From positions 1 through 45,165 of the forward strand of contig CAZMBV010000001.1 of assembly GCA_964564335.1 (NCBI GenBank): DNA of 45,165 bases. The letters are read 5' to 3'. The position numbers were made by a program, and so were the translations under genes. Positions within the stretch are counted from its first letter, which is position 1, and each line of letters begins with the position of its first letter. Source of the stretch: an uncultured archaeon. GTDB lineage: Archaea > Asgardarchaeota > Thorarchaeia > Thorarchaeales > Thorarchaeaceae. Positions 7,951 through 36,101 of this stretch are shown here, in pieces. The notes under the pieces are model-generated. The model had not been told where the DNA came from and did not search any database. It worked only from the letters and a program-made list of their open reading frames with translations.

Positions 7951-7971
7951 TCTTATCAGTCTCCATCACAT

Positions 7972-16341: not shown

Positions 16342-16427
16342 AACTATCGGTCTCCACTTCTAAACCATCTACATTGATTTATTGTTCAATTCGAATTTAC
16401 AATCAAAACCAATATATTTATATGTTT

Positions 16428-16498
16428 TGTATTACTGTAATACATATATTCAAATTATGTTGAATAACAACGATGGTATTTTAACTTGTGTTGAATAA
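16428..16498. promoter_or_regulatory. Candidate operator elements in a divergent intergenic region
   Basis: A perfect palindrome tgtattac-t-gtaataca lies at 16428-16444. The direct repeat tgttgaataa occurs at 16458-16467 and 16489-16498 (31-bp period). All lie between the divergently transcribed wHTH-PAS gene and the regulator/kinase operon. Confidence 0.3.
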
Positions 16499-16653
16499 TA
16501 ATATGGCATCGGAAAATGAGGCGAAATAATTCGCATACACCAATTCTTGCTAAGTTCTGCATTTTCTTGCCTCTCGAAACCTTCCGAGCTAGCTGATTCT
16601 GATCTATGAATTATATTCAGTATGAAAAGTAAAACCTCGGAGGTGTGTATCAA

Positions 16654-20555: not shown

Positions 20556-22151
20556 CTACTTAGTATCTGGCCTTGACATTCTTTTGATTCCTATTACAGA
20601 AATAATAATTCCGATAACTATCATAGGAGTACTCACTGTTAACATGAAAAGAATTAGATTACTTTCAACCATCATCACCCTAATTCCAATCATTAATGCC
20701 ATTACGACAATACCGATGACCGCAAAAATGGATACGAACGTATTCACCATAAATGCACTGCTTTTTTGATCTTCATACGCAGGATTGTTTGCTGTAACTC
20801 CAATACACAATAAGACTGCTCCACACGTTGACCAATACGCATACGCAATAACCGCTAATGATTCGAGGATATTAAATCCAAAGACAACAGCAGCTACAAT
20901 TGATGGGATTATAGCAACTGGAATTATCAGAATGAAGAATCCAATGATACGAGCTTTCGCAAATTTCCAGACTCCATTTGGAGAGGACTTGATTATCCAG
21001 AGCTGATCCTTTGATTCAAGAAATCCAATTCCTCCAAATGTAATTCCACTAACCATAGCAAGCATCATTCCTAACATCAGAATTGTAATCATCAAAATTA
21101 TTTGATGAACTCCTTCAGGAGCACCTTCAGGCATTGAACCCATAGCATAACTTAGAATGATTGGTAATAGGACAGAGATAATGACACCATAAATGAGTCG
21201 TGACATATTCTGCATTTTACGTGTGAACTCTTTGATTGAATTAACAACTAGAACACCAGGCGCTCCAGGATATAATCGTCTTATCCCTTTTAAGAACCGA
21301 TTCTCCTCTCCAACTGTTGTAATCTTTTCTGTACGCGGGCCAGATCCAAAAGAGAAGATTCTGTCTGCTGATACGTATGCTAGGACTACAATTAGTGTTG
21401 TGAAGCATAGAAGCATAATGAAATCTCCAAAAACGGTCAGCGTCAAAATGTCAACGAACAAGGTCTCTGACAAACCTAGACCATTGAAGATTATAATGCT
21501 CCATGAGATGATGTCAGCTCCCCACGTAAAGGGAAATAGAATGAAGACATCTAAGCCAAGGATTGCTGACATGGCACTTGAGAAGTAGATTAATCCATAC
21601 ATCGGAATGAGAACGACGATAGCAACAACCATTGACAGTGCTTTTGCAATATCGTTCCCACGGGATGATTCACCAAGTTTTGCTTGAATAGCCGTAGTGA
21701 TGAGATTTGAAAAGAATAAGGTACTGAGAGCAACGAAGAACAGAGTAAGATACATGATGATTTGACCGAGTAGGCTAACCTGCATGACTATTGCAAATGG
21801 TGTAAGCATTATTGGTGCAATAAATAACACAAGTAGTCCATAGCTAGGAACCTTTCCTAGGAACATTCCGAACATCATGTCCCATGTACTTACGTTATTA
21901 CTCAACATAATTTCCCATTGGCCGATACGAATCTCTTGTAAGGCGTATGAAATTGGATAGATAAGGAAAATAACCCAGAGAAGCATCATTACTGAGCGCA
22001 TTAAACTTGGAAAGCTGTACATTAGCAATAATTCTACTCCTGGCCCAAATGAATCGAGGATGGATGGCATTATGCCTGGAACAATGAATAATGCCCAGAT
22101 GATCCCAATACATAAGAGAATGATGTTAGCAGGATTACGGTATCTACGCAA
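20556..22151 (-). CDS. ABC-2-type transporter permease (polytopic)
   Basis: About 12 or more hydrophobic helices, located directly downstream of an ABC ATPase. The track start is TTG at 22151, but the reading frame stays open to 22238 and encodes a typical permease N-terminus (see findings). Confidence 0.7.
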   Translation of the reverse strand: MRRYRNPANIILLCIGIIWALFIVPGIMPSILDSFGPGVELLLMYSFPSLMRSVMMLLWVIFLIYPISYALQEIRIGQWEIMLSNNVSTWDMMFGMFLGKVPSYGLLVLFIAPIMLTPFAIVMQVSLLGQIIMYLTLFFVALSTLFFSNLITTAIQAKLGESSRGNDIAKALSMVVAIVVLIPMYGLIYFSSAMSAILGLDVFILFPFTWGADIISWSIIIFNGLGLSETLFVDILTLTVFGDFIMLLCFTTLIVVLAYVSADRIFSFGSGPRTEKITTVGEENRFLKGIRRLYPGAPGVLVVNSIKEFTRKMQNMSRLIYGVIISVLLPIILSYAMGSMPEGAPEGVHQIILMITILMLGMMLAMVSGITFGGIGFLESKDQLWIIKSSPNGVWKFAKARIIGFFILIIPVAIIPSIVAAVVFGFNILESLAVIAYAYWSTCGAVLLCIGVTANNPAYEDQKSSAFMVNTFVSIFAVIGIVVMALMIGIRVMMVESNLILFMLTVSTPMIVIGIIISVIGIKRMSRPDTK

Positions 22152-22210
22152 TTTAGATGTCTGTACAAAGAATTCAGTTTTGGCAATGGCTAACCATTTT
22201 CTGGTCAGAT

Positions 22211-22969
22211 TCAGTCCCTCCAGCTGAGAAGTTTTGATCTATCTACTTGACCTCCAACGATTTTCAGGTAAGCATCTTCCAGGTCCTTTCCTGCAACTTG
22301 ATCTATGATATCTGAGGGTGAACCCAGAGTATTTAGTAAACCCTCATTCAAGATACCTATTACCTCACAGACATCTTCCGCAAAATCGGTCATGTGTGTA
22401 CAGATGAAGAATGTGGTATCCATCTCTTCTGCCATTGCGATGATAATCTCTTTGACCAAAGCGCTTGCAGCTGGATCTAGTCTCGAAGTCGGTTCATCAA
22501 GGAAGACTAGTCGGGGTTCATGCAATACTGTTGATGCTACCAATACTTTTTGTTTCATACCACTGCTATAACTTTCCAGTAGGTCATTTTGTCGCTCCTC
22601 TAAACCCATTAGATCTAGGAGTCTATCAATTCGTCGATGGAGTAACTCTCCACTCATGTCATTAAGTGCACCTATGAATTCTAGAAATTCCACAGCAGAG
22701 AGTTTGGAATAGAGACCTGGGGTTTCTGGTAAGAGTCCAGTGACTGATTTAATTTCTTTTCTTTGAGTATGTACATCAAAACCGCAAACAGTAGCATTTC
22801 CACTGGTCTGTTTTAACAGTCCTGACAAAATACGTACTGCAGTTGTTTTTCCAGCTCCATTTGGCCCAAGAAACCCAAAGACGCTACCTCTTGGGACATT
22901 GAGATTCAAGTTCTGTAATGCTAGAACACTTCCAAAATTCTTTGAGAGACCTTCGGTCTGTATATCCAT
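22211..22969 (-). CDS. ABC transporter ATP-binding protein
   Basis: Walker A GPNGAGKTT, signature SSGMKQK, Walker B LVFLDEPTSRLD. The track start is GTG at 22981; the in-frame ATG at 22969 gives the typical MDIQTEGLSKNFG. Confidence 0.85.
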   Translation of the reverse strand: MDIQTEGLSKNFGSVLALQNLNLNVPRGSVFGFLGPNGAGKTTAVRILSGLLKQTSGNATVCGFDVHTQRKEIKSVTGLLPETPGLYSKLSAVEFLEFIGALNDMSGELLHRRIDRLLDLMGLEERQNDLLESYSSGMKQKVLVASTVLHEPRLVFLDEPTSRLDPAASALVKEIIIAMAEEMDTTFFICTHMTDFAEDVCEVIGILNEGLLNTLGSPSDIIDQVAGKDLEDAYLKIVGGQVDRSKLLSWRD

Positions 22970-23144
22970 ATTCCCTGACACTTGACCACTACCAATTCCT
23001 GTTCGATGCTTGAAGATATAAACGTTTTACAGAATTTTAATTACTCTCCATTTGCGTATTTTTATCACAACCACTCAAACCTTACATGTCTGTTCTCTTC
23101 CTTAGATATACAAAGAAAATCATATTTTGCCGGAAGTTGATTGC

Positions 23145-24395
23145 ATGGCCTCTGACGCAACTAATTCAGATAGAGTTTCAATCACTCGGAGAATCCGCTA
23201 CATATTATTTGAGCCATCAGATGCACTTATTTCTGATGTTGTCAGAGTTAAGGCACGACTGCTGTCATTATCGTTGTTTTTAATTGTAATTCTACTTCCT
23301 TCTATTCAGGTAGTACTGGGAATATTCTTCGTAAGTGCAACGACAATCCTACAAGCAACTCTTATTTTCTTTGCAATTTACATAATCAGTAGGACCAAAT
23401 ACGTTGTTATTGCAGGTGTCTTAATGGCTCTGGCGCTAGCGATAATGCCCTATCTGTTTCTATTGACCCCATTCAATCGGAGTCAAACAAGAATAGTTCT
23501 TAATCTCATTATTTGGCCTGTCATCGCAGCTTTGTATGGTTCGCAGTGGTTCTCATCTCGTCTAGAGGCTCTTTTCATTTCAGGGCAAACAATCGGGCTA
23601 GTGTTATACTCTAGCATTTACCCAGCTATTGATTTACTTATAGCTCTGGAACCAATAATAGATCAAGCCGCAATTAATCTGGTTATCCTAATATTTACAT
23701 GGTCTTTGAATTATTATATTTCTGAACTTGAAGAACACAAGCAGTTCCTTGAACAACGTCAAAGGGAGCTTGAGGTCTATACATCCGTACTGACACATGA
23801 CTTAGGAAACGATATGCAAATTGTCAAAGGTCACATTGAGCTTCTCGGTGAAATTGAGAGGTGGCCAGAGAATATTGAATCATATCTATCAACAACACTT
23901 GCTGTTAGTGAAAGAATGTCACAGGTCATCAAACTATTCTCTGTTGTTGGTAGAGGAAGTGAATACGATTTCCTTGATACTCTTCAGACTATGGCGAAGA
24001 ATGCAAAGCAATCTAGAGGTGGAGCAAATGTGAAACTAATGTACGAGCGAGATGTCCGATCCTCAAATATCCGTCCCGGTATACTGCTTCCCTTAGTTCT
24101 TGAAAATCTGTTAAGAAATACTGCTGACTACGCTGGTAATGGAGCAGTTGTAACTATTCGTCTTGGTTTAGTTGAAAAGAACCTTCTAATTACGTATCGT
24201 GATGATGGGCCTGGAATTGATGAGACTGTACGGGATAGGATTTTTCAAAAAGGTGTGACTACGAGGGGAGAAGGGAAAGGTTTAGGACTGTATCTCTCAA
24301 AGAGAATCATCGAATCATATGGTGGAACAATTGAACTACTGGAATCGCAATTAGGTTCGGGAGCTGCATTTCTTATCTCGGTTCCAGTCCTTTAG
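23145..24395 (+). CDS. Membrane-bound sensor histidine kinase
   Basis: About six N-terminal TM helices, then H-box THDLGNDMQIV and an ATPase domain (ENLLRNTADY, DDGPGID, GKGLGLYLSK). The track start is TTG at 23127; I prefer the ATG at 23145 (MASDATN). Confidence 0.8.
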   Translation: MASDATNSDRVSITRRIRYILFEPSDALISDVVRVKARLLSLSLFLIVILLPSIQVVLGIFFVSATTILQATLIFFAIYIISRTKYVVIAGVLMALALAIMPYLFLLTPFNRSQTRIVLNLIIWPVIAALYGSQWFSSRLEALFISGQTIGLVLYSSIYPAIDLLIALEPIIDQAAINLVILIFTWSLNYYISELEEHKQFLEQRQRELEVYTSVLTHDLGNDMQIVKGHIELLGEIERWPENIESYLSTTLAVSERMSQVIKLFSVVGRGSEYDFLDTLQTMAKNAKQSRGGANVKLMYERDVRSSNIRPGILLPLVLENLLRNTADYAGNGAVVTIRLGLVEKNLLITYRDDGPGIDETVRDRIFQKGVTTRGEGKGLGLYLSKRIIESYGGTIELLESQLGSGAAFLISVPVL

Positions 24396-24407: not shown

Positions 24408-25190
24408 TCATAGTGAAAATTGTTTCTGAAGTTTGCTACTCCGATAACAGGCCTTGATGCATTTTCCACATATGTCCTTCTCGATACCCTTTGACTTTAA
24501 AAACTGAATGTACCTATGGCAATTCTCTCTGTAGTCAGGTAGAATATTGCGATGCCTGATGAATCCGCAGGCATCCTCGCACGCTGTACAAATTCCGCAC
24601 ATCGATTCAATTCTCACTCCATGTTGGAATGGCATTTTAGTAATTATTGATGCGAATCTGATTGCGCAACTATACTTCTCATGGATGATAAGTTGGTTCT
24701 TACCACGCCACCCAATCCCTGAGTTTTCGGCAACGACTCTGTGAGAAACGACCAGCGGCCAGTATTCCCACACATGTTCGACTTCTCCTTTCATATCTCC
24801 AATAGTTGCCTTCAGAGGAATACCGTTGAACTGAGATGCTATTGCAAGAGCCATTCGATTCAGAACTTGATTGATTCTATCGTATTCTCTTCCGTATTCA
24901 TTCCAAAGCGGATAATCTGTTTCACCAGTGTCTTTGTTGTCTATATAATCAATTATGGGATTTCGATAAGCCACACCAATGCATATGATGGAACCGGATT
25001 CGTAGAGATCACCAAATCTTTTTTTAGTTATCTCATGGAGTTTCTTCTTCTGTACATCCATGAGTTCATCATAAACAGCTTTGTAACTTGATATACCAAT
25101 ATCTCCGCGTTCGTTTCCTTCATCAAGAAGCTCTTGGAACACTCTATGTAATTCTAGAGTGTTCTCTTTAGCTTCGGTTTGATGATTCAT
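24408..25190 (-). CDS. QueG-like / reductive-dehalogenase-superfamily 4Fe-4S protein
   Basis: AENSGIGWRGKNQLIIHEKYSCAIRFASIIT resembles the AGLGWIGKN..LI..GS block of epoxyqueuosine reductase. It is followed by CGICTACEDAC and CGKCIKAC. The gene lies 22 nt downstream of the hdr operon, with ggag upstream of its ATG. Confidence 0.5.
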   Translation of the reverse strand: MNHQTEAKENTLELHRVFQELLDEGNERGDIGISSYKAVYDELMDVQKKKLHEITKKRFGDLYESGSIICIGVAYRNPIIDYIDNKDTGETDYPLWNEYGREYDRINQVLNRMALAIASQFNGIPLKATIGDMKGEVEHVWEYWPLVVSHRVVAENSGIGWRGKNQLIIHEKYSCAIRFASIITKMPFQHGVRIESMCGICTACEDACGFIRHRNILPDYRENCHRYIQFLKSKGIEKDICGKCIKACYRSSKLQKQFSL

Positions 25191-25212: not shown

Positions 25213-28200
25213 CTAAGAAGATGCTACTTGCTTTTTATGAGCTGCAATAAGTCCTAATATTTCTGCATTGATCTGCTCTGTTGTAAAGTGCCTCCTCTTT
25301 GCTGCTCCAGTAGGGCAAACAACTTGGCATTTCCCGCAACCCGTACAGAGTAGTGAATTAACTACTGAAAGTTGTGGTCCATCTTCACGGTCCTCAAGTG
25401 TGATGGCATCAAACGGACACACTTGCTCGCAAAGGCCGCATCCGATACACAACTCCTCATCAATAATAGCTTTATCCATTTGGACTCGAACCTGACCTTT
25501 GAGTACATGTGATGATGCTGCACTTGCAGCTGCTTTTCCATCAGAAACACAAGATGGAATATCCTTCGGGCTCTGACATGCACCTGCTATGAAGACTCCT
25601 CTAGATTTAGTGTTAACCGGTTCAAGTTTCGGATGAAGCTCTTTCATAAAGCCACCCTCACTCCTGTCGACTCCAAGCATGTGTGCTAGTTCAGCAGCTC
25701 CTTCCGCAGGATCAACAGCCATTGTTAGGACAACAAGATCAAAGTTCAGGCGTAAGAGTTGTCCGATTCCTTGATCAAAGACTGTGAAACTGATAGTTCC
25801 ATCTTCTTCTTCAGTGAAATCACTCGGGAATCCGCGTACGAATTTAGCACCATGTTCTCTCACACGACCGTAGAACTGCTCATACTCTTTTCCTCCAGCT
25901 CTAAGTTCATGGAATATGACCCACTGATCGATTGAGTCATTGTACTCTCGATAAGTCATTTCGACATGACGGAGTGTATACATACAACCGAAATTACAGC
26001 ACCAAGGTCTGCAGTTTTGGTCACGAGACCCTGCACAGTTGATGAACGCAATCTTCTTCGGAGTTTCTTTATATTCTGGAGGAATCAGAACCTTTCCTGC
26101 GGTTGGGCCAACAAGGCTCAATAGACGCCCATATTGCCCTCCAGTGATAACTCGCTTGAATTTTCCGCCACCATATTCAGGAAGCTCTGTCATGCTAATC
26201 TCCTGGAAACCAGTGGCTGCGACAATTGCACCAACTGTAAGCTCGATTTCTTCTTCGACCATACAATGGTCTATAGCATCTTTCTCACAAGCTTCAACGC
26301 ATAATTTGCATTCACAGCAGATAGCACAATTAAGGCATCGCTCTGCTTCCTTAACTGCAATCTTTTCAGAGAATCCAAGTTCCACCTCTTCAAAATTCGC
26401 AGCTCTGGTTTTTGCAGGTAATGTCTTCATTTTTGCACGGGTTCCACCAGGAAGTTCATCCTGTTCAAGTTCAGGTCGTGGAGCTCTAGGTTGCGCCTTT
26501 GGTCTGGTTTCTATCAGATCAAGACCACGAAGGAATAGATCGATAGACTTTGCTGCTTCGTGTCCTGCACCAACAGCTTCTACTGCAAGAGCTGGACCTG
26601 TGACTAGGTCTCCTCCTGCAAATACGTCTTCCATACTTGTCTGCATTGTCACTGAATCTACGATTGGAGTACCCCATCTGGATAACTCGAGTTCTGAGTG
26701 AGGCCCATCTGGATGAACAGACTGTCCAATAGCAATTATGACATTGTCAACATCTAAATCGAATTCAGAACCAGTAATCGGTACTGGACGCCGTCTTCCA
26801 GATTCATCTGGGTCTCCTAGTTTCATCTTGATGCATCTGATTCCAGAGATTGCACCGCCAGAAACAAGCACCTCCACAGGATTTGCGAGCAGTTTTAGCT
26901 TCACGCCTTCTTTCACTGCATCATCAACTTCACTCCTGATCGCAGGCATCTCCTCTCTGGACCTTCGATAAACGAGGGTAACATCAGATCCAAGACGAAG
27001 TGCGACTCGAGCTGAGTCTATTGCAGAATTTCCTCCACCTATCACAGCGACCTTGCTTCCAAGCTGTACTTTTTCTCCCCCATTCACACGATAGAGGAAA
27101 TCAAGGGCATGATAGACACCTTTCGCATCTTCACCGTTCACATGCAGCTTTGAACTTACATAGGCTCCTGTTCCAAGAAAGATTGCATCAAATCCTTGTT
27201 TTCTGAGTGAATCTAGAGAATCAACTCTCTTTCCTGTGATTATCTCAACACCATGCTGCTTTACGTAGTCAATCTCCGACTTCAGGATATCGCGTGGTAG
27301 ACGATGCTCTGGAATACCCCACCTCAGTAATCCTCCTGCCTCTTCACGTTCTTCAAATACCGTGACGGGATAACCTTTCTGGGCAAGGTAAAATGCGCAC
27401 GCTATTCCCGCGGGTCCTGCACCAACTACAGCTATCTTCTCCTTCTTGTCTATTACATTATCAACAGGATCTATCTCTCCTGATTCGAGCTCACGATCAT
27501 GTAGCCACCTGTGAATGTTCCTAATACTCACGCTCTCGTCGTAAGTGCCTCTTTCACATTCGTCTTCACAAAGTGCTGGGCAAACGCGACCTAATGCACC
27601 AGGAAATGGAATTGCTTCTCTGACCAATTTGAGTGCTTCATCGTACTTGCCAACTTTAGTAAGCGTAACGAATCCCTGACAGCTAACATGAGCTGGACAT
27701 GAAATCTTACATGCTGCATGACCAAGTTTCTCTATTGATACGGCACCAGGTACTGCCTGTGGAAATGGTTTGTAGATAGCTGTCCTTTTTGACATTCCAA
27801 GATCGTGATGTTTTGGTGTAAGAACTGGACATACTTTCAGACAATCTCCACAATCATTGCATTTCTCAAGATCAATATACCGCGGGTGTTTGGCAAGAGT
27901 GACTTTGAAATTGCCATAGTCTCTCTCAACCTCTTTAACCTCAGTGGTTGTATAGATATCGATGTTCTTATTCCTATCAATTGCACTTAACTTGGGAGAC
28001 AAAATACACATTGAACAGTCTAGTGTTGGGAATGTTTTTTCCAATTTTGCCATATATCCACCGATTGATACATTACGTTCAATCAAATCCACATGGATAC
28101 CTTTGTCAGCTAGATCAAGAGCAGTCTGGATGCCGGAAATTCCCGCTCCTACGACCATGACACTCTTTTCAACTGGATAGTCTTTGAATCCAATATCTTC

Positions 28201-28617
28201 AAGGAGTTTAGCTCGCTCGACTGCTCCTGCGATGAGTTCGTAAGCTAATTTCTGAGCCTTCTCGGGCTTATCTCCATGTACCCATGTATCGTGTTCTCGG
28301 ATATTAGCTTGCGCTAACCTGAATCTATTGAGACCCTTCTCTTCGATTATGTCACGGAATAGCTCTTCATGTAATTTTGGAGTACAGGAAGCAATCACCA
28401 CACCCGTAAGATCATTTTCTTCTATGCTTTGTGCAATTCTTGATTGCCCTTCCTTTGAGCAAGTGAACATGTTCCATGTTGCAAGAACAACACCAGGATA
28501 ATTATCAAAATCATGGGCAAGCTTATCGACATCTACGACGCCACCAATGTTTGAACCACATGAACAAACAAAGACACCAATGCGATCCTCTTGCTTTTTA
28601 CTACGCTTCTTTGACAT
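25213..28617 (-). CDS. Giant HdrA homologue with nested GltD/NfnB-like NAD(P)H module (HdrL-like)
   Basis: HdrA landmarks: VCSCGSN, GAGISG, FPTLDCSMC, CNDCGDCLKVCP, AIYKPFPQAVP, NCAGSRDQNCRPWCC, CIGCGLCEQVCP and CTGCGKCQVVCP. The internal GltD/NfnB-like block carries GRVCPALCEDECERG, GAGPAGIACA, AGGLLRWGIPEHRLP, VIGGGNSAIDSAR and FAGGD. Confidence 0.8.
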   Translation of the reverse strand: MSKKRSKKQEDRIGVFVCSCGSNIGGVVDVDKLAHDFDNYPGVVLATWNMFTCSKEGQSRIAQSIEENDLTGVVIASCTPKLHEELFRDIIEEKGLNRFRLAQANIREHDTWVHGDKPEKAQKLAYELIAGAVERAKLLEDIGFKDYPVEKSVMVVGAGISGIQTALDLADKGIHVDLIERNVSIGGYMAKLEKTFPTLDCSMCILSPKLSAIDRNKNIDIYTTTEVKEVERDYGNFKVTLAKHPRYIDLEKCNDCGDCLKVCPVLTPKHHDLGMSKRTAIYKPFPQAVPGAVSIEKLGHAACKISCPAHVSCQGFVTLTKVGKYDEALKLVREAIPFPGALGRVCPALCEDECERGTYDESVSIRNIHRWLHDRELESGEIDPVDNVIDKKEKIAVVGAGPAGIACAFYLAQKGYPVTVFEEREEAGGLLRWGIPEHRLPRDILKSEIDYVKQHGVEIITGKRVDSLDSLRKQGFDAIFLGTGAYVSSKLHVNGEDAKGVYHALDFLYRVNGGEKVQLGSKVAVIGGGNSAIDSARVALRLGSDVTLVYRRSREEMPAIRSEVDDAVKEGVKLKLLANPVEVLVSGGAISGIRCIKMKLGDPDESGRRRPVPITGSEFDLDVDNVIIAIGQSVHPDGPHSELELSRWGTPIVDSVTMQTSMEDVFAGGDLVTGPALAVEAVGAGHEAAKSIDLFLRGLDLIETRPKAQPRAPRPELEQDELPGGTRAKMKTLPAKTRAANFEEVELGFSEKIAVKEAERCLNCAICCECKLCVEACEKDAIDHCMVEEEIELTVGAIVAATGFQEISMTELPEYGGGKFKRVITGGQYGRLLSLVGPTAGKVLIPPEYKETPKKIAFINCAGSRDQNCRPWCCNFGCMYTLRHVEMTYREYNDSIDQWVIFHELRAGGKEYEQFYGRVREHGAKFVRGFPSDFTEEEDGTISFTVFDQGIGQLLRLNFDLVVLTMAVDPAEGAAELAHMLGVDRSEGGFMKELHPKLEPVNTKSRGVFIAGACQSPKDIPSCVSDGKAAASAASSHVLKGQVRVQMDKAIIDEELCIGCGLCEQVCPFDAITLEDREDGPQLSVVNSLLCTGCGKCQVVCPTGAAKRRHFTTEQINAEILGLIAAHKKQVASS

Positions 28618-29544
28618 CTATTCTTGCACCTCCGTTTTCACATTAATTGGACTAGGTCCAAGTTTGCGAATTTGCTCAGTGAAATCCTCTACAATTTTTG
28701 CAAATTTGACGCCCATTGCAGCGGATGCAAAGTCGATATTGAGTCGACCACCTAAACCAATCTCTTCGAAAATTTCCGACCAGAATTTCACAAAATCTTC
28801 TTGCATAAAATTACCAGCCTTGGGGCTATCACCACCATAATGACATTCTGACAATAAGCAACCTGTGACCAGTACCCCATCAGCTCCATTTTCCAGAGCT
28901 GTCATAATATGGATTGGTTCAAGTGCTCCACTACATGGAAGTCGAATTGTTCGGATTGATACAGGGTAATGTAAATGCATCAGACCTGCAAGATCTGCGG
29001 CTGCATGTGAACACTCCCAGCAAACAAAACAGATGATGAATGGTTCCCACTCTTTCGATGTGGGTTTTGGTGGAAACGCTTCGATAGGTCCGATTATCTC
29101 AGGAAGCTTGTAGGTCTTCTGTAATGTGAGACAATCCTCTGGACATGCCTCAATGCATTTTTCGCAAGCAATGCACTGCTCTGCACTCCACAATATTGAC
29201 CCATAACCTGGAAGTCCTTGAGGCACTGAAATAGCTTGAACATCACCGGAATCGTAATCGCCTTTGAGATTCTGCAACAGTGTTACTAGTTCTTCTCTGT
29301 TCTTTGATCTGAAACCCTCTTGGGGTATTGTTACTCGCAAGTAATCATGCATATTCAGAGTTTCATCTATATCTAATGCACCAGGTTCACATGCAACTAT
29401 ACATTTCTTACACGCACTGCAAGTCTGCGCTTTGTATTCAATAGTTCCAAACCCTACGACTTTTTCTGGAACCTCCACCTCATTTGTAGGAGTCTTCACT
29501 GCAATCGATCGAAGTGCTTCTAGAAGTTTGATTCGCTTATCCAC
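28618..29544 (-). CDS. 2x[4Fe-4S] ferredoxin fused to MvhD (FlpD) domain
   Basis: CSACKKCIVACEP and CIACEKCIEACPEDC, followed by an MvhD-like block FVCWECSHAAADLAG ... IRLPCSGALEP ... GADGVLVTGCLLSECHY. The track start is TTG at 29553; the GTG at 29544 sits 9 nt after gaggagg and overlaps the upstream stop. Confidence 0.75.
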   Translation of the reverse strand: MDKRIKLLEALRSIAVKTPTNEVEVPEKVVGFGTIEYKAQTCSACKKCIVACEPGALDIDETLNMHDYLRVTIPQEGFRSKNREELVTLLQNLKGDYDSGDVQAISVPQGLPGYGSILWSAEQCIACEKCIEACPEDCLTLQKTYKLPEIIGPIEAFPPKPTSKEWEPFIICFVCWECSHAAADLAGLMHLHYPVSIRTIRLPCSGALEPIHIMTALENGADGVLVTGCLLSECHYGGDSPKAGNFMQEDFVKFWSEIFEEIGLGGRLNIDFASAAMGVKFAKIVEDFTEQIRKLGPSPINVKTEVQE

Positions 29545-31492
29545 GGTGGGCAACCTCCTCTTGCATCTTATTTGGTAACGCTGCTATCATGTATGTTGCC
29601 TTTACACGACTTGGATCTTGACCTATACTTGTCAGCATGTCCTGTGTAAATTGGACAACCAGCTCCGATAGGTGATCTCCAGTCTGATGATGGCAACCAC
29701 CAGGTGGGCAATGAGCTATAGTGATATTCTCAGCTCCCACTACCAAGCCTTTCAAAATTTCAATTGGTGATATCATTCCAGCACAGGGAAATTGAATAAC
29801 GTAATTACCTGTTGGATATCCTTTACCCGTAAATCCCGCTTGATCGATTGATGCATTTGCACACTCGCTACAAGCGTAGACTAGTGAGAAAGGTTTGTCA
29901 CCTTCTAGTTTCTTATGATTCATTGCAATTGCTTCGAGTCTTGCCATCCAGGAATCCTTGTTATGCGATTGGAATTCAATAGCACGCGTAGGACATGCTG
30001 ATACACAAATTCCACAGAATTCACAATTCATTGGTATGTGTTTGATGAGGTCTCCATCACGTCTTAATGCATCATTCGGGCACGTCTTAACACATGCCTC
30101 ACAAACATCGCACAGTTCCTCATCGATTACGGGAATCCACCCTTTACGCTCACCTTCTGCGACTGCATTCTTCAACACTTCAAGTGAAGCGTTTGAAGCC
30201 GATGCCAATGCATCATTTAGATTCATTGGGGTCTTTGCATTGCCTGCAATAAAGATGCCTCTCTTTGAGGTTTGGACTGGTTTCATCTTCGAATATCGAG
30301 TCTTAATGAATCCATTTTGGTCCAACTCCAAGTCAAGTGTGCTGGCAAGGTTTCTTGTGCCAGACCAAGGTTTACGTTCTGGCTGCAGGACAATGTAATC
30401 TACTGTAAATTCTCGTATCTGTGACTCTAGTGTATTTTCGAGTCTACAAACAAGTTGGTCTTTCTTTTTGTCAACTTTCTCAAGAGTTCCTCTTACAAAT
30501 ATGACTCCTGATTCCCTTGCTTTTCGATAGAGATTCTCGTCCTTTGTGTAAATATTGAAGTGTGCAACAATGATAGTATTTCCTTTCTCTGCAGCCTGAG
30601 TTACTTCTCGAAGGAGATAACTTCCCTCGGCGTCACTTTCGTGATATGATGGATCTTGCGCTACAAGAATAGTCTTACCAGATTGATTTGATGTCAGAGT
30701 TGCCAACTCTGAAATAAATACAGTGTTGTCATACTTGCCATAGTGGGCGGTCTTTGCAAGAGATGGCGCAGATTGCTCTGTATTTGTAGCTATGACTATC
30801 GCACCTACAAGCATATCTTTCTCTTTTCCATCTTCAAGTTTCACATCAACAGAATAAAGTCCAGCCCTCCCACTAAGGCTTGTAATTGTTCCATTGAGTT
30901 TCTCAGCATCCTTAGAGGTTGAGAGTAATCCTTTGATAGTTTCTTTCAGGATTTCACTCTCAGCCATGAATTGGTTCAAACCTACATAGGAGTCTTTATT
31001 GAACTCTGGAGGTTCGAGCAAAATCACAGGAATACCAAGCTGAACCAAGTCACTAGCAACTTTCAAGCCAGCAATTCCTCCTCCAACAACTAAGACTTTC
31101 TTTTCAATCTCAAGGTCTACTGCTGTCTTTGGTTCTAGGTGATCGACATGAATTGCACCATCATGGAGAAGTACTATCGCCTTGTTTGTGGCACTATTCT
31201 TATCATCTTTATGAACCCACGCAACATGTTCTCGAATTGGTACAAACAATACCTGTTCACTCTTGAGTCGCCTCTCCATGGGTACTCCAATTATTTGAGA
31301 GGTACAGGCACCAATAACAACTGCATCGTCGTTCGATACTTCAGAGTCTAGATAATCTAACCCTTCTTTCAGACATAAAGAATCATGGACCTGAACCGAT
31401 TCGAAAGTATTACCAAGTTCCTTTTCAATTCGTGCAAAGTCTAGCCACCTGGTGAGCGTCTTATTGCATGTACATAGGAAGAGTTTCTTCAT
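29537..31492 (-). CDS. Degenerate HdrA-like flavoprotein fused to ferredoxin and MvhD domains
   Basis: HdrA-type N-terminal Cys domain (LCTCNKT ... GACTS) and a GGGIAGL fold. These are followed by CDVCEACVKTCP / CEFCGICVSACP and an MvhD-like block YACSECANASIDQAG ... FPCAGMISP ... AHCPPGGCHH. The start forms an ATGA overlap with the upstream hdrA. Confidence 0.75.
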   Translation of the reverse strand: MKKLFLCTCNKTLTRWLDFARIEKELGNTFESVQVHDSLCLKEGLDYLDSEVSNDDAVVIGACTSQIIGVPMERRLKSEQVLFVPIREHVAWVHKDDKNSATNKAIVLLHDGAIHVDHLEPKTAVDLEIEKKVLVVGGGIAGLKVASDLVQLGIPVILLEPPEFNKDSYVGLNQFMAESEILKETIKGLLSTSKDAEKLNGTITSLSGRAGLYSVDVKLEDGKEKDMLVGAIVIATNTEQSAPSLAKTAHYGKYDNTVFISELATLTSNQSGKTILVAQDPSYHESDAEGSYLLREVTQAAEKGNTIIVAHFNIYTKDENLYRKARESGVIFVRGTLEKVDKKKDQLVCRLENTLESQIREFTVDYIVLQPERKPWSGTRNLASTLDLELDQNGFIKTRYSKMKPVQTSKRGIFIAGNAKTPMNLNDALASASNASLEVLKNAVAEGERKGWIPVIDEELCDVCEACVKTCPNDALRRDGDLIKHIPMNCEFCGICVSACPTRAIEFQSHNKDSWMARLEAIAMNHKKLEGDKPFSLVYACSECANASIDQAGFTGKGYPTGNYVIQFPCAGMISPIEILKGLVVGAENITIAHCPPGGCHHQTGDHLSELVVQFTQDMLTSIGQDPSRVKATYMIAALPNKMQEEVAHRG

Positions 31493-32757
31493 TTAGACAC
31501 CTCCATCAAATCAGAGTATACTCTGAGTGCAACAGCATTAGCTTCTGCAATACTGGTTGGAATATCAGCAGGTCCCGTCGCTGTTCCACATGCGTAGACC
31601 TTTCCTTCCTTTACAACTCTTCGAGCGAATCCGTATTCACCTAAAAATTCAGAAACGGGATCACTATTTGGTCCCCATGGAGCCAGAGGTGATGCAAGAA
31701 CAACGAGGTCAGATTCTATCTGCATGAGTTTTTGAGATTGAGTATCTTCGACAATTGTGACTGGTTTGCCGTTGCGAACTACAACTTTATCCGGCTTGCC
31801 TCGCAAGAATTTGACTCCTTTCTCAATTGAGTTAGCCAGATAATGCACACTAGCGTTTGGGACTCGTATATCCATATAACAGATCGTTACGTCGATGCCA
31901 AGATCTCGTAACATCTCTGCGTGCTTCAAGCTATATGTACAACATGCCTGAGAGCAGTACTCGAAAGCAGTCTTATCCCTACTACCGACGCAAAGAATCA
32001 TAGTCACCTTAGATACGTTATCTCCTGTAGAGGTGGTGACTACACCTTTTGTATCTCCAGCTGGATCAATCAATCTTGCTAATTCAGCATGGGATATTAT
32101 ATCGTCTGATGTCCTGTATTCGTAACCAGGAAATTCGAGTGGAATCTTCTCTTCAACGCCTGTCGCTATAATAACTGCATCAGCGTTGATTGTTTTTGAA
32201 CTCTTCTTCTCTTCGAAGTCTATGGCATTGACCTTGCAGACATCTGCACACTTTCCACATTTCGTACAATGCTCCATATCTATTAGAGGAGCATGAGGTA
32301 CTCCTTGAGGAATTGGCCGATAGATAGCTTTCCGTGTTCCTCCACGAACGGCATATTCATCTGGTACTTCTACATCACAGACATCAATGCATTCAAGACA
32401 CACTACACAGCGGTCAAGTTTGACATGGCGTGGCTCCAATTTGATTGAAACCTTGAATCCACCTTCTGCTTCGGTGATTGACTTGACCTCAGCTTGCGTA
32501 TACAACTTGAGATTCTTCTTTTCAGTCACTAAACCACGATACTCACATTTTCTGTGATGTCCATCGTACATCTCATTACTAGCATCAAGACATAATGCAC
32601 AATCGCCGGTTGGAAAGACACGACCTAGATAGGTTGAGAGTCCACCGATGATAGCTTCTTTTTCAATCAAATGAACTGTAACTCCAAGATCGGTTAATTG
32701 TTGAGATATTTGGATTCCAGCCAGTCCCGCACCAATAACAACTGCGTTCTTTGCCAT
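31489..32757 (-). CDS. hdrA: Heterodisulfide reductase subunit A-like core (lacks the N-terminal Cys domain)
   Basis: GAGLAGIQ FAD fold, FPTGDCALC, inserted ferredoxin CVVCLECIDVC / CTKCGKCADVC, and LCVGSRDKTAFEYCSQACC. Confidence 0.8.
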   Translation of the reverse strand: MAKNAVVIGAGLAGIQISQQLTDLGVTVHLIEKEAIIGGLSTYLGRVFPTGDCALCLDASNEMYDGHHRKCEYRGLVTEKKNLKLYTQAEVKSITEAEGGFKVSIKLEPRHVKLDRCVVCLECIDVCDVEVPDEYAVRGGTRKAIYRPIPQGVPHAPLIDMEHCTKCGKCADVCKVNAIDFEEKKSSKTINADAVIIATGVEEKIPLEFPGYEYRTSDDIISHAELARLIDPAGDTKGVVTTSTGDNVSKVTMILCVGSRDKTAFEYCSQACCTYSLKHAEMLRDLGIDVTICYMDIRVPNASVHYLANSIEKGVKFLRGKPDKVVVRNGKPVTIVEDTQSQKLMQIESDLVVLASPLAPWGPNSDPVSEFLGEYGFARRVVKEGKVYACGTATGPADIPTSIAEANAVALRVYSDLMEVSK

Positions 32758-32759
32758 TC

Positions 32760-33665
32760 TTATGCACCTCCAACTCCAGCCTTTACCAGTAGCTCCGTGA
32801 TTTTGACTCGATGGTATCTCCTCTGATTATCAGTGACAATCTCAGTCAAACCCATTGAAAGAGCTAACAATTCTCCTAGGGATAATACTGGAATATTGAA
32901 CTCAGTTTCAGCAATTGCTTCAACTTTCCCTTGCTGTGTTTCCATTTGGGTATAACATGTTGGACAGAGTACTACGATAGCATCTGCGCCTGAGGCTTTG
33001 ATATGCTTCAGATGCTTTGATGTAATTGTCAATGCCTTTTGCTCATCTCCAGGCATAATAGGAGCACCACAACACGCCATCTTATCTTCGAATTCTGCAA
33101 CCTCTGCCCCGGTCGCTTTGATGATTTCATCCATCCATTGTGGGTTTTCTGCGCTATCCATATTTGTTGCTTCCAATGGTCTTACAAGATGGCATCCATA
33201 GTGCGGTGCAATCTTTAATTGCTTCAGAGGATTTGTTACCTGCTTCGCAATAGCTTCTATTCCTATATCGTTGTGAAGTACATGAAGCAGGTTCTTGACA
33301 GCATGCTCTCCAGAAACTTCAAGTCCTGACTTTTTGAGCCGTTTATTGATCCTCTCTTTTAGTTCTGGATCTTCATGGACCATATGATTCGCTACTGCGA
33401 GGGTATGGAAGCATCCGCTACACATTGCTACTGTTTCATTCCCAGTAGCTTCACTCACTGCAACATTTCTTGCTGCTATTGTGACCCAGGCTTCAAAGTC
33501 AACTCCAGTGAAAGTAGTAGGTTCTGGGCAGCATGAATGATCCGAACTTGTTTCTAATTCAACTTCTAGTTTCTTGAGAACCTCTCGCATTGACAATTCG
33601 AAATGTGGTAGTCGGTAAGGTATCATGCAACCTGGAAAGTAAGTGTAAGTTCGAGCTTTACTCAT
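32760..33665 (-). CDS. hdrB: Heterodisulfide reductase subunit B-like (two CCG-type Cys-rich domains)
   Basis: First domain: YFPGC...SCCPEP...MCSGC. Second domain: HYGCH...MACCGAP...LCPTC. The track start is 33692; the ATG at 33665 follows ggaggt by 6 nt and overlaps the hdrC stop (ATGAGTAA). Confidence 0.8.
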   Translation of the reverse strand: MSKARTYTYFPGCMIPYRLPHFELSMREVLKKLEVELETSSDHSCCPEPTTFTGVDFEAWVTIAARNVAVSEATGNETVAMCSGCFHTLAVANHMVHEDPELKERINKRLKKSGLEVSGEHAVKNLLHVLHNDIGIEAIAKQVTNPLKQLKIAPHYGCHLVRPLEATNMDSAENPQWMDEIIKATGAEVAEFEDKMACCGAPIMPGDEQKALTITSKHLKHIKASGADAIVVLCPTCYTQMETQQGKVEAIAETEFNIPVLSLGELLALSMGLTEIVTDNQRRYHRVKITELLVKAGVGGA

Positions 33666-34179
33666 CTTTGGAACCTCCATAGACTGATTCAACTTTTTCT
33701 AAATTTCCAACAATTCCAATATCTGCAAGCATCTCGACAATCTTCTCCATAGGTGGCGTTCCAAGGTCTGGGAGTCCCATCTTCTCACGAGTCTTGAGCA
33801 TTGGTGAGCTTACCTCTAGGCTTCTGCCAATCGATAGGATATTTCTTGCACGATCAAGAGCCGCAGGAGGTACATTTCCTTTCATTAGCCCTCGAACTTT
33901 AGCTAGGATGAGGATATGTGGTATTTTCACATGTTCAGGGCACCGTACCTCACATTGTTCGCATGTAAGGCAATTCCAAACCAGTTGCTCCTCTGCTATC
34001 AATTCATCACTGAGTATTATTTTCTGCAAAAATAATCTAGGATTGAATGCGGGTTCGATATCTGCGACAGGACAGGCACTAGTGCATCGTCCACATTGAT
34101 AACATCTCAGCAGAGTCTTACCCTCTGGTTGATCTAGAAGCCAATTTCTGAAGTTCAGATTTGTATCGTTTGTAACCAT
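33658..34179 (-). CDS. hdrC: Heterodisulfide reductase subunit C-like (2x[4Fe-4S])
   Basis: CYQCGRCTSACPV and CLTCEQCEVRCPEHV. The gene is 173 aa and is the first gene of the operon. Confidence 0.8.
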   Translation of the reverse strand: MVTNDTNLNFRNWLLDQPEGKTLLRCYQCGRCTSACPVADIEPAFNPRLFLQKIILSDELIAEEQLVWNCLTCEQCEVRCPEHVKIPHILILAKVRGLMKGNVPPAALDRARNILSIGRSLEVSSPMLKTREKMGLPDLGTPPMEKIVEMLADIGIVGNLEKVESVYGGSKDE

Positions 34180-34346
34180 TTTAGTTACGACCCATTGGTT
34201 CTCTTCTATTGGGCTGGTAAAAAGGTCAATTTTAAGGCATCGCCCTATACGTAATTTTCCTTAACAATTGCTTATTGAAATGTGGATTGCTGGGGAACTA
34301 TGATGTAAGTTTAATTAGATTGGTTGATGAAGTATATCTGAGGATT

Positions 34347-35387
34347 ATGCTACCTGTAATTAGTAAGTGTGGGAATATGTGCTCAAGCTGTCCATGGGGA
34401 GTTTGGGTCAGAAGAAATCAGACAGAAGAGGAGTGGGAGTCATTTGCTGAGGACGTGAAGAAGTACGTGGGATATTCTCCTACACAGAATCCCTGTCATG
34501 GTTGTCAGACACCGAATGAAAAACTTGCAAAAGATGTTGGAGTCCATAACTTTCTCAGAGGTTGTTCTGCTCGTAAATGTGCATTTCACAATGAAATCAG
34601 AAATTGTGCTTTCTGCTCAAGATATCCCTGTGATAAAATCAACGCATTGAATGTTAGCAATAGCAGAGAACAGGCTGAGCAGCGATTAGGTGGGTCAATG
34701 CCTGATGACAAGTACCAATCATTTGTCCGAATCTTTGAAGGAAAGAAGACACTAGATGAAATTCGTAAGGGTCTAAGTTCGGACCAGATTCAGGAAGTCA
34801 AAACTACTGAACAAAAGCCTCCCAAGATTATAGCATTTCCTACTGTTGAGAAGAAACATCTTAGATACAAGACTCTTCATGATGCACTTTCGACGATACT
34901 TTCATCCAAGCTAGGGTTTATTGACATAGACACATTAGCTGTACAAGAGATGCTTGACTCACGACGTGCTGTTCTTATACGATTACTATGGATACTTGCA
35001 AATTTCGGATTGTTAGATGGTGAGACATTATCAGTAGACTCGATTACAATAAATAATCACAAGAAGGGAACATCGGGTTTTCCAACCACGGAAGGTGGGT
35101 GGATTAGATGGTTGGAGATTCTCTCAAAAACAGGGATTCGCGCAAACTTGATACTTGCACCAATTGAGAAGAGTGAGCTTATTACTCCTATTGGATGGTT
35201 AAGAGATAGATTACCTGGTTCAAATGTCCCTGGGTATCATGTGACCGTGTCTTTTGATAACTTGCTGGGTGGATTAGAATCTTTGAAGTTGCTTCACACC
35301 TTTGCAACACAACTAGATGATGCATATGGAAAGAAAGCATTTGCCGCCTTCAAGAAAGCAGATATGCGATATCTCGAAAAGAAGTAA
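34347..35387 (+). CDS. DUF3795-like Cys-rich domain fused to an unassigned ~250-aa C-terminal region
   Basis: CGNMCSSCPW ... CHGCQ ... CSARKCAFHNEIRNCAFCSRYPCDKI resembles DUF3795. The track start is TTG at 34275; I prefer the ATG at 34347, which is preceded by gagg. Confidence 0.5.
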   Translation: MLPVISKCGNMCSSCPWGVWVRRNQTEEEWESFAEDVKKYVGYSPTQNPCHGCQTPNEKLAKDVGVHNFLRGCSARKCAFHNEIRNCAFCSRYPCDKINALNVSNSREQAEQRLGGSMPDDKYQSFVRIFEGKKTLDEIRKGLSSDQIQEVKTTEQKPPKIIAFPTVEKKHLRYKTLHDALSTILSSKLGFIDIDTLAVQEMLDSRRAVLIRLLWILANFGLLDGETLSVDSITINNHKKGTSGFPTTEGGWIRWLEILSKTGIRANLILAPIEKSELITPIGWLRDRLPGSNVPGYHVTVSFDNLLGGLESLKLLHTFATQLDDAYGKKAFAAFKKADMRYLEKK

Positions 35388-35432
35388 AAAAAAATTCACG
35401 AATACAGGTGACATAATTTGGTATTAGAAATA

Positions 35433-36101
35433 ATGAGCCAGATTCACTCTGAATTAAAAGCAAAAGGTAATCCAGAGCGAAAGGAAAAGATTGCTGGATA
35501 CCTGAAAACTTCTTCTCTAGAATTCATAGGTGTTGAACTTCCAGACATACACAAAATTGTTACAAAGAGCATCAAAGGAGTTAATGTCGATGATATGCGG
35601 GAACTCATGGACGAGCTTTGGAAGATTGAAACTTTTGAAACCCGTCTTGCAGCTATTGACATCATGAAAGAGTACGGAAAGAAGGGGTCGATAGACATAG
35701 CAATGTCGATGGCTGACCGTTGGATTGATGATGTTGACACTTGGGCAATAACTGACCCACTTTGCTCACCAACAATAGGATCAATGATATTACGGGATTC
35801 AAAAGTAGAATTGATTTTAAAATCGTGGAGTAATTCTGAAAATTTTTGGAGACGCCGATGTTCATTTCTTCCATATCTTTACTTGGCACTCAAAACACAG
35901 TACCAACCGGAATTTGCAAAGAAGATACTTGTAGTAGTTACTCCTCATGTCGCTGATAAGGAATTCTTTGTCGGAAAAGCTGCAGGCTGGGTCCTACGAG
36001 AATTGAGCAAAAGAAATCCTGATGTGGTCCGAGAATTTTTCAATAACAATCGAAATAGAATGACGAAACTTGTTATTAGAGAAGGAGAAAAAAAGCTATA
36101 G
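35433..36101 (+). CDS. DNA alkylation repair protein (AlkC/AlkD-like HEAT-repeat family)
   Basis: Family-typical blocks: KAKGNPERKEKIAGYLKT, FIGVELPDI, FETRLAAIDIM, VDTWAITDPLC, NFWRRRCSFL and FFVGKAAGWVLRELSKRNPDVV. The track start is TTG at 35418; I prefer the ATG at 35433. Confidence 0.7.
   Translation: MSQIHSELKAKGNPERKEKIAGYLKTSSLEFIGVELPDIHKIVTKSIKGVNVDDMRELMDELWKIETFETRLAAIDIMKEYGKKGSIDIAMSMADRWIDDVDTWAITDPLCSPTIGSMILRDSKVELILKSWSNSENFWRRRCSFLPYLYLALKTQYQPEFAKKILVVVTPHVADKEFFVGKAAGWVLRELSKRNPDVVREFFNNNRNRMTKLVIREGEKKL

Follow-up and report, generated by a model that had tools for sequence, protein, structure and literature searches.

A Thorarchaeota operon predicted to encode an NADP(H)-linked Hdr-type complex with three HdrA paralogues and two MvhD fusions

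Gene content and layout of the operon

The stretch of DNA analysed here, hereafter the window, comprises positions 1 to 45,165 of contig CAZMBV010000001.1 (assembly GCA_964564335.1) of an uncultured Thorarchaeaceae archaeon, and carries on its minus strand an operon of heterodisulfide reductase (Hdr)-type genes. Six genes follow each other in the order, with the coordinates and with the junctions that an original prediction from the bare sequence had given: hdrC (33658-34179, 173 amino acids (aa)), hdrB (32760-33665 from ATG 33665, 301 aa, or 32760-33692, 310 aa), a core HdrA gene (31489-32757, 422 aa), a gene for an arm HdrA fused to ferredoxin (Fd) and MvhD domains (arm HdrA::Fd::MvhD, 29537-31492, 651 aa), an Fd::MvhD gene (28618-29544 from GTG 29544, 308 aa, or up to TTG 29553, 311 aa), and the gene of HdrL, an HdrA with an inserted NADP(H) module (25213-28617, 1134 aa). 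An 8-nucleotide (nt) overlap, ATGAGTAA, joins hdrC and hdrB (33658-33665), 2 nt separate hdrB from the core HdrA gene (32758-32759), ATGA joins the core and arm genes (31489-31492), the arm and Fd::MvhD genes overlap by 8-17 nt depending on the start codon (29537-29544 with the GTG start), and the Fd::MvhD stop directly abuts the HdrL start in TAG-ATG (28615-28620). The internal starts, ATG 33665 of HdrB and GTG 29544 of Fd::MvhD, match the beginnings of the orthologue alignments (q1 and q3-4, respectively). Read-through or selenocysteine insertion at the junctions was ruled out, as the frame changes at ATGA and at the hdrC/hdrB overlap, the Cys pair is encoded as Cys, and no in-frame TGA is needed.

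Upstream of hdrC lies a divergent intergenic region of 95 nt (34180-34274) with an A/T-rich TTAAAA about 50 nt before the ATG, which is a putative archaeal promoter of the operon; beyond it, a DUF3795 gene (Pfam; 34275-35387) is encoded on the opposite strand. At the other end, a QueG/RdhA-like open reading frame (ORF; 24408-25190, minus strand, 260 aa) starts 22 nt past the HdrL gene. Since the gap is this short, the ORF is preceded by a GGAG ribosome-binding site and no T-run intervenes, the operon probably extends to seven genes with the QueG-like one as the last, a gene that the original description of a six-gene operon had missed. A convergent kinase gene (23127-24395) ends facing it with 13 nt between the two stops, and the transcription unit is therefore most likely to run from ~34.2 kb to ~24.4 kb. 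The possibility of an assembly artefact or of a decaying, pseudogenised cluster was ruled out: public collections contain the exact window proteins on as many as 6-12 independent contigs, metagenome-assembled genomes (MAGs) from many studies show the same gene order, the frames are intact and the ligands conserved; the 651-aa arm protein had no match in the contig index.

Every item of the predicted parts list, namely HdrC, HdrB, three HdrA proteins, two MvhD modules and a GltD/NfnB-like module, was recovered in Pfam and NCBIfam, and the domain searches that the prediction had proposed supported its HdrB/C and MvhD assignments. The HdrC-like protein has two CxxCxxCxxxCP motifs for [4Fe-4S] clusters with Fer4_8/Fer4_17 matches, and scored 75 bits against TIGR03290 (cut-off 160). 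In the HdrB-like protein, two CCG domains (PF02754 twice, E 2.5e-33) hold the 10 Cys for two non-cubane [4Fe-4S] clusters, with a score of 268.5 bits against TIGR03288 (cut-off 345). Fd::MvhD combines two [4Fe-4S] motifs ~75 aa apart with a well-conserved MvhD module (nt 28657-29037; PF02662, E 3.8e-36), which scored 120 bits with the VhuD profile and 106 bits with MvhD of M. wolfeii (5odc_D). The QueG-like protein carries the motifs CGICTACEDAC and CGKCIKAC and resembles QueG (TIGR00276, E 7e-14, under the cut-off; PDB 5d08, E 6e-12); its gene holds the same position in two related loci (L005 and L015; loci are given L numbers throughout) at 81-82 % identity, and in the window's clade the protein could partner HdrL on the acceptor side.

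The Pfam scan also took in the 26 ORFs of at least 195 aa outside the operon. In agreement with the original prediction, it detected no hydrogenase, formate dehydrogenase or F420 module in the 45 kb, and neither mcr nor coenzyme M/coenzyme B genes; MetFV was missing as well. More specifically, the window holds no protein with PF00374 or PF01058, no match to MTHFR/DUF5981, no NAD_binding_1/FAD_binding_6 protein and hence none of the FlxA/B/C type, and no NfnA-like ORF (NAD_binding_1/DHODB_Fe-S_bind). Queries from related loci (MvhA/G, group 3b hydrogenase subunits, MetFV and an FrhB-like protein) likewise had no tblastn match in the window. No dsr genes are in view in the window, and its Rfam and tRNA scans were empty.

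The three HdrA paralogues and the NADP(H) module

The two shorter HdrA paralogues are complementary in their domains. Core HdrA corresponds to positions 139-558 of the 777-position HdrA2 profile, and by alignment to the HdrA of 5ODC it comprises the flavin adenine dinucleotide (FAD)/thioredoxin-reductase-like domain with its GxGxxG, the Cys pair in DCALC (C53/C56, equivalent to M. wolfeii Cys194/197), the cluster motif CxGSRD..C..CC and the inserted 2x[4Fe-4S] ferredoxin domain with both motifs, and is devoid of the N-terminal and the C-terminal ferredoxin domains. Arm HdrA has the N-terminal cluster domain (Cys C7, C9, C40 and C63) and the C-terminal 2x[4Fe-4S] ferredoxin domain, followed by the MvhD module (aa 537-647, nt 29552-29884; PF02662 FlpD, E 2e-21); its flavin domain is degenerate, keeping GxGxxG and having no Cys pair, inserted ferredoxin or CxGSRD..CC motif. 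It matched positions 435-761 of the HdrA2 profile, and HdrA and MvhD in the PDB. The third paralogue, HdrL, is a complete HdrA with N-terminal domain, Cys pair, domain cluster and both the inserted and the C-terminal ferredoxin domains, and aligns with residues 2-290 and 292-649 of M. wolfeii HdrA (5ODC chain A) at 40-47 % identity per half with no canonical part missing. Thus, the FAD domain, the domain cluster and the inserted ferredoxin are present in the 422-aa and 1134-aa proteins, while these core features are missing in the 651-aa one. HdrL matched Fer4_20 and Pyr_redox_2 in Pfam and PRK12771 in NCBIfam (497 bits), and its exact sequence is labelled 'heterodisulfide reductase subunit A2' by JGI. 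Against the NCBIfam equivalog, HdrA scored 691 bits (cut-off 1100).

Complementary tandem HdrA genes in anaerobic methanotrophic (ANME) archaea, one with the Cys pair and the other with the N-terminal domain, were read as a heterodimer by Chadwick et al. 2022 (PMC9012536). Cryo-electron microscopy (cryo-EM) of an Hdr complex showed that one HdrA protomer lends its mobile arm to the FAD of its partner, the N-terminal cluster shuttling to the ferredoxin-side clusters and the flavin-domain cluster leading to HdrBC. Taken with the complementary domains, the ANME-1 reading and the arm mechanism suggest a static core in the 422-aa protein and an arm-only partner in the 651-aa one. The core/arm pair recurs in two distant Asgard-type loci (L003 and L037), where the flavin-domain cluster is retained in the arm and MvhD has a gene of its own. 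Fusions of the arm type (HdrA::Fd::MvhD, 650-720 aa) occur in many 50 %-identity clusters at 26-35 % identity and are thus not unique to the Thorarchaeota lineage.

The GltD/NfnB/StnC-like NADP(H) module of HdrL (aa 298-765, 468 aa; nt 26323-27726, minus strand) interrupts the inserted ferredoxin domain between its two Cys motifs, at M. wolfeii residues 290/292. Its best solved relatives are 9bov_A, 9n5u_A and 8oh5_C (E 1e-102 to 1e-126), i.e. a 1178-aa 'molybdopterin oxidoreductase', the NfnABC subunit 'NfnA' (963 aa), and StnC from the Stn transhydrogenase, while true NfnB and GltD matched at E 1e-85 or weaker. The module and the StnC group share a C-terminal 'NFEEVELGF…CLNC' segment, which is N-terminal in NfnB, and the module has the NADPH-type motif YRRSREEMPA. 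The unusual ligand position of the proximal cluster, Glu in NfnB and Lys170 in StnC, is occupied by His369 (nt 27511-27513); among 29 HdrL-type proteins it was His in 18, Lys in 11 and Glu in none, and the His or Lys may tune the cluster potential. A classical bifurcating NfnB was ruled out as the model of the insert, as StnC scored better and shares the permuted C-terminus, and neither an NfnA partner nor the Glu ligand is found; by the same features, together with its StnC-type topology, the system falls outside NfnAB. In Stn, the corresponding module binds NADPH and FAD, has two [4Fe-4S] clusters, no longer bifurcates and passes electrons on to a separate bifurcating module. From these likenesses we infer that the insert would act as an NADP(H) port rather than as a second bifurcating flavin. 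A PDB search returned no solved structure in which HdrA and an NADPH module are fused in this way.

Conservation, natural variation and genomic surroundings

Taking one genome per species, a scan returned 28 Thorarchaeota/Promethearchaeota loci. By tblastn with the six window proteins, the six-gene order, which the original prediction had proposed to search for, is kept in every locus long enough to show it and recurs in ~20 Thorarchaeota species; in a 74 %-identical relative (L001), the six genes stand in the same order with junctions of 0-8 nt. Across 20-22 orthologues per protein with 56-92 % identity, all Cys of five proteins are invariant, i.e. 8 in HdrC (20/20 orthologues), 10 in HdrB (21/21), 17 in core HdrA (21/21), 18 in arm HdrA::Fd::MvhD (21/21) and 15 in Fd::MvhD (22/22), so these parts are clearly under selection.

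Two types of the operon were distinguished by the last HdrA. In type I (the window, L005, L006, L009, L010, L013 and L001/L007) it has the NADPH insert; L032 groups here by identity, its contig ending before the insert site. In type II (L016-L031), which includes the SMTZ1-45, AB_25 and WORH6 MAGs and is exemplified by L025 (7253-16307), a canonical HdrA of ~675 aa without insert is followed by a second divergent hdrC-hdrB pair, scored where a locus reaches past the last HdrA; L023 (CP070658) shows the insert-less HdrA alone and stops there. The second pair has 29-39 % identity to the first in type II and in L001, which possesses both the NADPH insert and the second hdrCB. In the window's clade (at least 79 % identity) the second hdrCB is gone, and in the closest relatives the QueG-like gene stands in its place. 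Types I and II are sister clades in a neighbour-joining tree of the HdrA part, built with one methanogen outgroup and no bootstrap, so that one gain or one loss of the insert explains the pattern; the tree gives no direction. The original prediction had taken the pyridine-nucleotide module as the only visible external redox port. This holds within the window, but with an orthologous operon of the sister clade being without the insert, the port is an add-on and not the defining input of the operon; type II operons have no visible external redox port at all.

The full architecture of HdrL was found in more than 120 clusters at 90 % identity, with lengths of 1106-1138 aa or longer; besides unnamed metagenome contigs, these come from Thor-, Sif-, Hermod- and Promethearchaeota, Halobacteriota and Thermoplasmat(ot)a. 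In L034, a Thorarchaeota paralogue, the order is hdrCB-HdrL-mvhD-core HdrA with no hydrogenase; in L035 and L036, HdrL stands beside MetF/MetV; and in L003 and L037, hdrBC, HdrL, mvhD, core HdrA, arm HdrA and mvhD are followed by a small ORF, mvhG and mvhA, an arrangement that by its gene content couples HdrL parts to a group 3c hydrogenase. A short ORF (116-121 aa) faintly resembling a helix-turn-helix protein, which has no counterpart in the window operon, follows core HdrA in L034 (15137-15487) and L037 (9633-9998) and the second MvhD gene in L003 (17283-17636).

The operon might encode two co-transcribed but separate enzymes instead of one wired supercomplex, the first of HdrCB, core HdrA and arm::MvhD, and the second of Fd::MvhD and HdrL, perhaps with the QueG-like protein, and with its own acceptor. 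The two divergent hdrCB pairs flanking both halves in type II operons and in L001 speak for this, as do the HdrL proteins with their own hdrCB or MetFV and no arm-type HdrA in L034, L035 and L036, and the replacement of the second hdrCB by a QueG/RdhA-like Fe-S protein in the window's clade. However, the genes are strictly co-linear with 0-8 nt junctions over ~20 species, neither the MvhD of the arm protein nor the ferredoxin domain of Fd::MvhD has another visible partner, and the 3′ half has the order FeS-MvhD-HdrL as in Syntrophobacter, whose proteins were detected together. We regard separate enzymes as a possibility to be taken seriously, although a doubtful one.

The variation also bears on whether a hydrogenase is involved. 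In L013 (CSMAG_2438, type I, 79 % identity), a [NiFe] hydrogenase of the sulfhydrogenase type (group 3b, NAD(P)-dependent; four genes, 209-4191, plus strand) lies directly upstream on the same strand and ends 242 nt before hdrC at 4433, which suggests a link to H2 through NADPH; in L010, as closely related as L013, this hydrogenase is missing upstream. Apart from it, tblastn found no hydrogenase in the flanks of ~20 Thorarchaeota type I/II loci. The flanks of L025 contain H+-pyrophosphatase and EtfBA genes and no hydrogenase or formate dehydrogenase. Those for EtfB and a ferredoxin-fused EtfA (FixAB-like, potentially bifurcating; 20583-22593, plus strand) stand ~4 kb downstream of this type II operon. 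The absence of a hydrogenase in the original prediction is thus borne out at the window locus and does not extend to a general feature, with MvhAG in L003/L037 and the group 3b enzyme in L013. The MvhD modules could dock a group 3c MvhAG or another hydrogenase encoded elsewhere in the genome, making the complex H2-driven or H2-evolving with NADP+ accepting electrons in addition to ferredoxin or as an alternative to it. In every solved Mvh-Hdr complex, MvhD serves as the adaptor to the hydrogenase, and that of Fd::MvhD is recognisably close to the M. wolfeii protein with its 106 bits; in L003 and L037 a homologous core/arm pair directly precedes mvhD-x-mvhG-mvhA, with HdrL and hdrBC in the cluster; L037 and the type II locus L028 come from one MAG, so this lineage owns MvhAG; and the portless type II operons must exchange electrons through something encoded elsewhere. 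Set against these are the hydrogenase-free flanks, 25 kb on one side and 11 kb on the other in the window and those of the ~20 loci with the exception of L013, the MvhD-type modules without hydrogenase in Methanosarcina HdrA2, MetFV-HdrABC-MvhD and the Syntrophobacter cluster, and the ferredoxin domain that is fused in Fd::MvhD exactly where MvhG would deliver electrons. On balance a hydrogenase encoded elsewhere appears rather unlikely to be the partner.

The remaining ORFs around the operon were assigned to PAS/GAF sensor kinases, response regulators, DNA repair, an ABC ATPase, a P-type ATPase, a Ras-family GTPase and an MtrH-like protein, and the rest had no matches. Signalling genes are unusually dense at 5458-20495 and 23127-24395, with seven histidine-kinase/response-regulator ORFs; four of these have receiver domains, and multi-PAS or PAS/GAF architectures are seen in the four largest (742-1028 aa). 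An MtrH-family methyltransferase (1907-2863, minus strand; PF02007, E 3e-74) adjoins a 249-aa ORF without Pfam match (1096-1845, minus strand), and the pair (1096-2863) may be a methyl-transfer system in a non-methanogen. Three DNA base-repair genes are scattered on either side of the operon, coding for an Fpg/Nei-like protein, a DNA alkylation repair protein and an AlkZ-like glycosylase (2885-3727, 35418-36101 and 37979-39202). Further along, a 195-aa small GTPase of the Ras/Roc/Arf family (39362-39949, plus strand; PF00071, E 7e-40) is an Asgard-type eukaryotic signature protein, and a 942-aa copper-type P-type ATPase (40060-42888, plus strand) has an N-terminal heavy-metal-associated domain and two C-terminal YHS domains.

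Known relatives, proposed function and significance

The closest published counterparts include bacterial clusters. HdrL as an HdrA/glutamate-synthase fusion followed by MvhD was described in 2009 as HdrL1-3 of Desulfobacterium autotrophicum (PMC2702500), and Sfum_0819-0824 of Syntrophobacter fumaroxidans, hdrABC-FeS-mvhD-hdrL with no hydrogenase, was present in the proteome under sulfate-reducing conditions; NAD(P)H-linked bifurcation or confurcation with a disulfide was proposed for this HdrABC/HdrL (PMC5947623). These clusters share with the Thorarchaeota operon an HdrA fused to an NAD(P)H module, an adjacent MvhD, an Fe-S protein, hdrA/B/C and no hydrogenase catalytic subunit, and the Syntrophobacter one also the 3′ order FeS-MvhD-HdrL; this likeness is drawn from published descriptions and gene order. 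They differ in that the FeS protein and MvhD are separate genes, which are fused in the Thorarchaeota operon, in having one ordinary HdrA instead of a split core and arm pair, and in a presumed disulfide on DsrC and selenocysteine in some proteins, where the Thorarchaeota operon has Cys.

Among archaea, ANME-1 HdrA9/10/11 carry an NfnB-like insertion of ~500 aa within their inserted ferredoxin domain, and the tandem HdrA5/6 and 12/13 are complementary pairs, with MvhD and HdrBC in the clusters and hdrA outnumbering hdrBC; the insertion occurred in some ANME-1 among the genomes studied by Chadwick et al. 2022, and a coupling of NADP(H), ferredoxin and a disulfide was proposed for HdrA-NfnB (PMC9012536). 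The window differs from these in its Asgard host, in combining the insertion and the heterodimer pair in one operon with MvhD fused to both partners, in an arm paralogue that has also lost the flavin-domain cluster, and in having neither FdhAB-like neighbours nor MetFV ones of the kind seen in L036. Like HdrL/HdrA-NfnB proteins generally, the window's HdrL is one polypeptide with the module inside the inserted ferredoxin domain and an adjacent mvhD. With the methanogen MvhADG-HdrABC (5ODC, 9SW2-6), the window shares the HdrB CCG clusters, HdrC, the HdrA domain set and MvhD, and every feature tested places it in the soluble HdrABC structural family (two CCG domains and 10 Cys in HdrB, two motifs in HdrC, the HdrA domains). 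In contrast to that complex, no MvhA/MvhG is encoded with the window hdr genes, three HdrA paralogues replace a homodimer, an NADPH module is added, and the host is not a methanogen; without MetF/MetV genes, the window also differs from MetFV-HdrABC-MvhD. StnABC/NfnABC (Bfu-type; 8OH5, 9N5U) follow the same design logic of a StnC-like non-bifurcating NADPH port on a separate bifurcating module, but their bifurcating partner is a NuoF/HydBC-type flavin mononucleotide module and not HdrA, and StnC Lys170 is replaced by His here. FlxABCD-HdrABC of Desulfovibrio is an NAD(P)H-linked Hdr system without hydrogenase, in which the MvhD-like FlxD joins a pyridine-nucleotide module to HdrA. Unlike in that system, no FlxA/B/C-type proteins occur in the window, and the NADPH site is a GltD-type module fused into HdrA.

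The 'unusual subunit composition' of the original prediction therefore holds against methanogens and not against the bacterial and ANME-1 clusters (PMC2702500, PMC5947623, PMC9012536). The kind of system is already known from genomes, namely HdrL, the hydrogenase-less cluster, the NfnB insertion and complementary HdrA pairs. Specific to Thorarchaeota is the combination of a core/arm pair with HdrL, both MvhDs fused, the second HdrCB lost and a QueG-like seventh gene. New with respect to earlier descriptions are the insert-less sister operon, the likeness of the insert to StnC-type ports and the core/arm split that matches the mobile arm, as well as the distant relatives with these parts beside MvhAG and the close one with a group 3b hydrogenase upstream. 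Literature searches found no published description of this operon in Asgard archaea; Asgard papers report a generic MvhADG-HdrABC and leave the heterodisulfide unidentified.

Judged by domain content, gene order and structural relatives, the operon would encode an Fe-S flavoprotein complex of the HdrABC/HdrL kind that is soluble and independent of the membrane, for cytoplasmic bifurcation or confurcation among NADP(H), ferredoxin and a disulfide. This agrees with the NAD(P)H-linked Hdr-type complex of the original prediction, fits all the findings and is the best reading of them, and we hold it with slight rather than firm preference. The steps are set out here from the most to the least secure. 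HdrB and HdrC would reduce or oxidise a disulfide/dithiol couple, not demonstrably CoM-S-S-CoB. The 422-aa HdrA would be the static catalytic core, with the bifurcating FAD, the Cys pair, the cluster toward HdrC and the ferredoxin-side clusters, and the 651-aa HdrA would contribute the mobile arm only, i.e. the N-terminal shuttle cluster, the C-terminal ferredoxin domain and the fused MvhD; together they would form an asymmetric heterodimer with one active site, connected to HdrBC and ferredoxin. HdrL, a complete HdrA served by the adjacent Fd::MvhD, would be a second unit that exchanges electrons with NADP(H), its StnC/GltD-like module binding NADP(H) and passing single electrons via two [4Fe-4S] clusters into the HdrA cluster chain. 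Such a role as an input module, and no longer as a second disulfide reductase, fits the fact that the window's clade has lost its second hdrCB, and NADP(H) as the currency of the operon fits the NAD(P)-linked group 3b hydrogenase directly upstream in L013. At the level of the whole assembly, NADP(H), ferredoxin and the disulfide would be coupled by flavin-based bifurcation or confurcation, as proposed for FlxABCD-HdrABC and for the HdrABC/HdrL of sulfate reducers.

Several points weigh against this NADP(H)-linked bifurcating complex. HdrA, HdrB and HdrC all score under the NCBIfam cut-offs of the CoB-CoM heterodisulfide reductase equivalogs. Part of the FAD-binding segment is missing from the aligned flavin domain of the arm HdrA. 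Core HdrA occurs with HdrL and no arm-only paralogue in L034 and in the first block of L037, so that other pairings are possible. The type II operon has no NADPH module, and the basic reaction is thus independent of it. The module itself is placed in the domain that is normally the low-potential exit to ferredoxin, and as a simple donor NADPH would need to push electrons into clusters that normally have a very low potential; with the insert in this ferredoxin-side branch of HdrA, NADP+ would serve as the acceptor as easily as NADPH as the donor. Finally, HdrL-type complexes of this architecture are predictions from gene content.

With a disulfide of about -140 mV, its reduction by NADPH is exergonic and needs no coupling. 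A non-bifurcating NADPH:disulfide oxidoreductase is thus conceivable, in which electrons would run downhill from HdrL to HdrBC for thiol homeostasis or repair with ferredoxin uncoupled, and the module being of the non-bifurcating StnC type would suit it. Yet the full bifurcation set of HdrA, i.e. flavin, Cys pair, shuttle-cluster domain and ferredoxin-side clusters, is conserved, three HdrA paralogues and two MvhD modules far exceed what a simple reductase requires, and type II operons have no NADPH site, all of which makes a plain reductase highly improbable.

How the two units of the proposed bifurcating complex would communicate is suggested by the MvhD fusions. As the MvhD of the arm protein and the ferredoxin domain of Fd::MvhD have no other visible partner, the HdrL unit and the core/arm unit are probably wired together by the two MvhD modules with the extra ferredoxin domain. 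In its strongest form, the operon would then encode a self-contained double-HdrA machine, in which an NADPH-fed HdrL is wired via MvhD-ferredoxin-MvhD to the single-site core/arm heterodimer, an arrangement that we advance tentatively and consider unlikely in full. If true, Thorarchaeota could produce reduced ferredoxin from NADPH, or the reverse, with a thiol cofactor and no hydrogenase; the machine would join Nfn and Stn as a third means of balancing NADPH and ferredoxin, and the NADPH-less sister operon together with the loss of the second HdrCB would record the acquisition of the port.

The value of the operon lies in a compact, well-defined target for heterologous expression and cryo-EM rather than in a new principle, and comparing orthologous operons that have the port with those that lack it offers a natural experiment on the role of HdrL-type fusions. 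Among known organisms, Asgard archaea are most closely related to the eukaryotic host cell, and models of eukaryogenesis hinge on their handling of hydrogen, ferredoxin and NAD(P)H. An operon found Thorarchaeota-wide means that at least one of their major Hdr systems has no hydrogenase link in cis.

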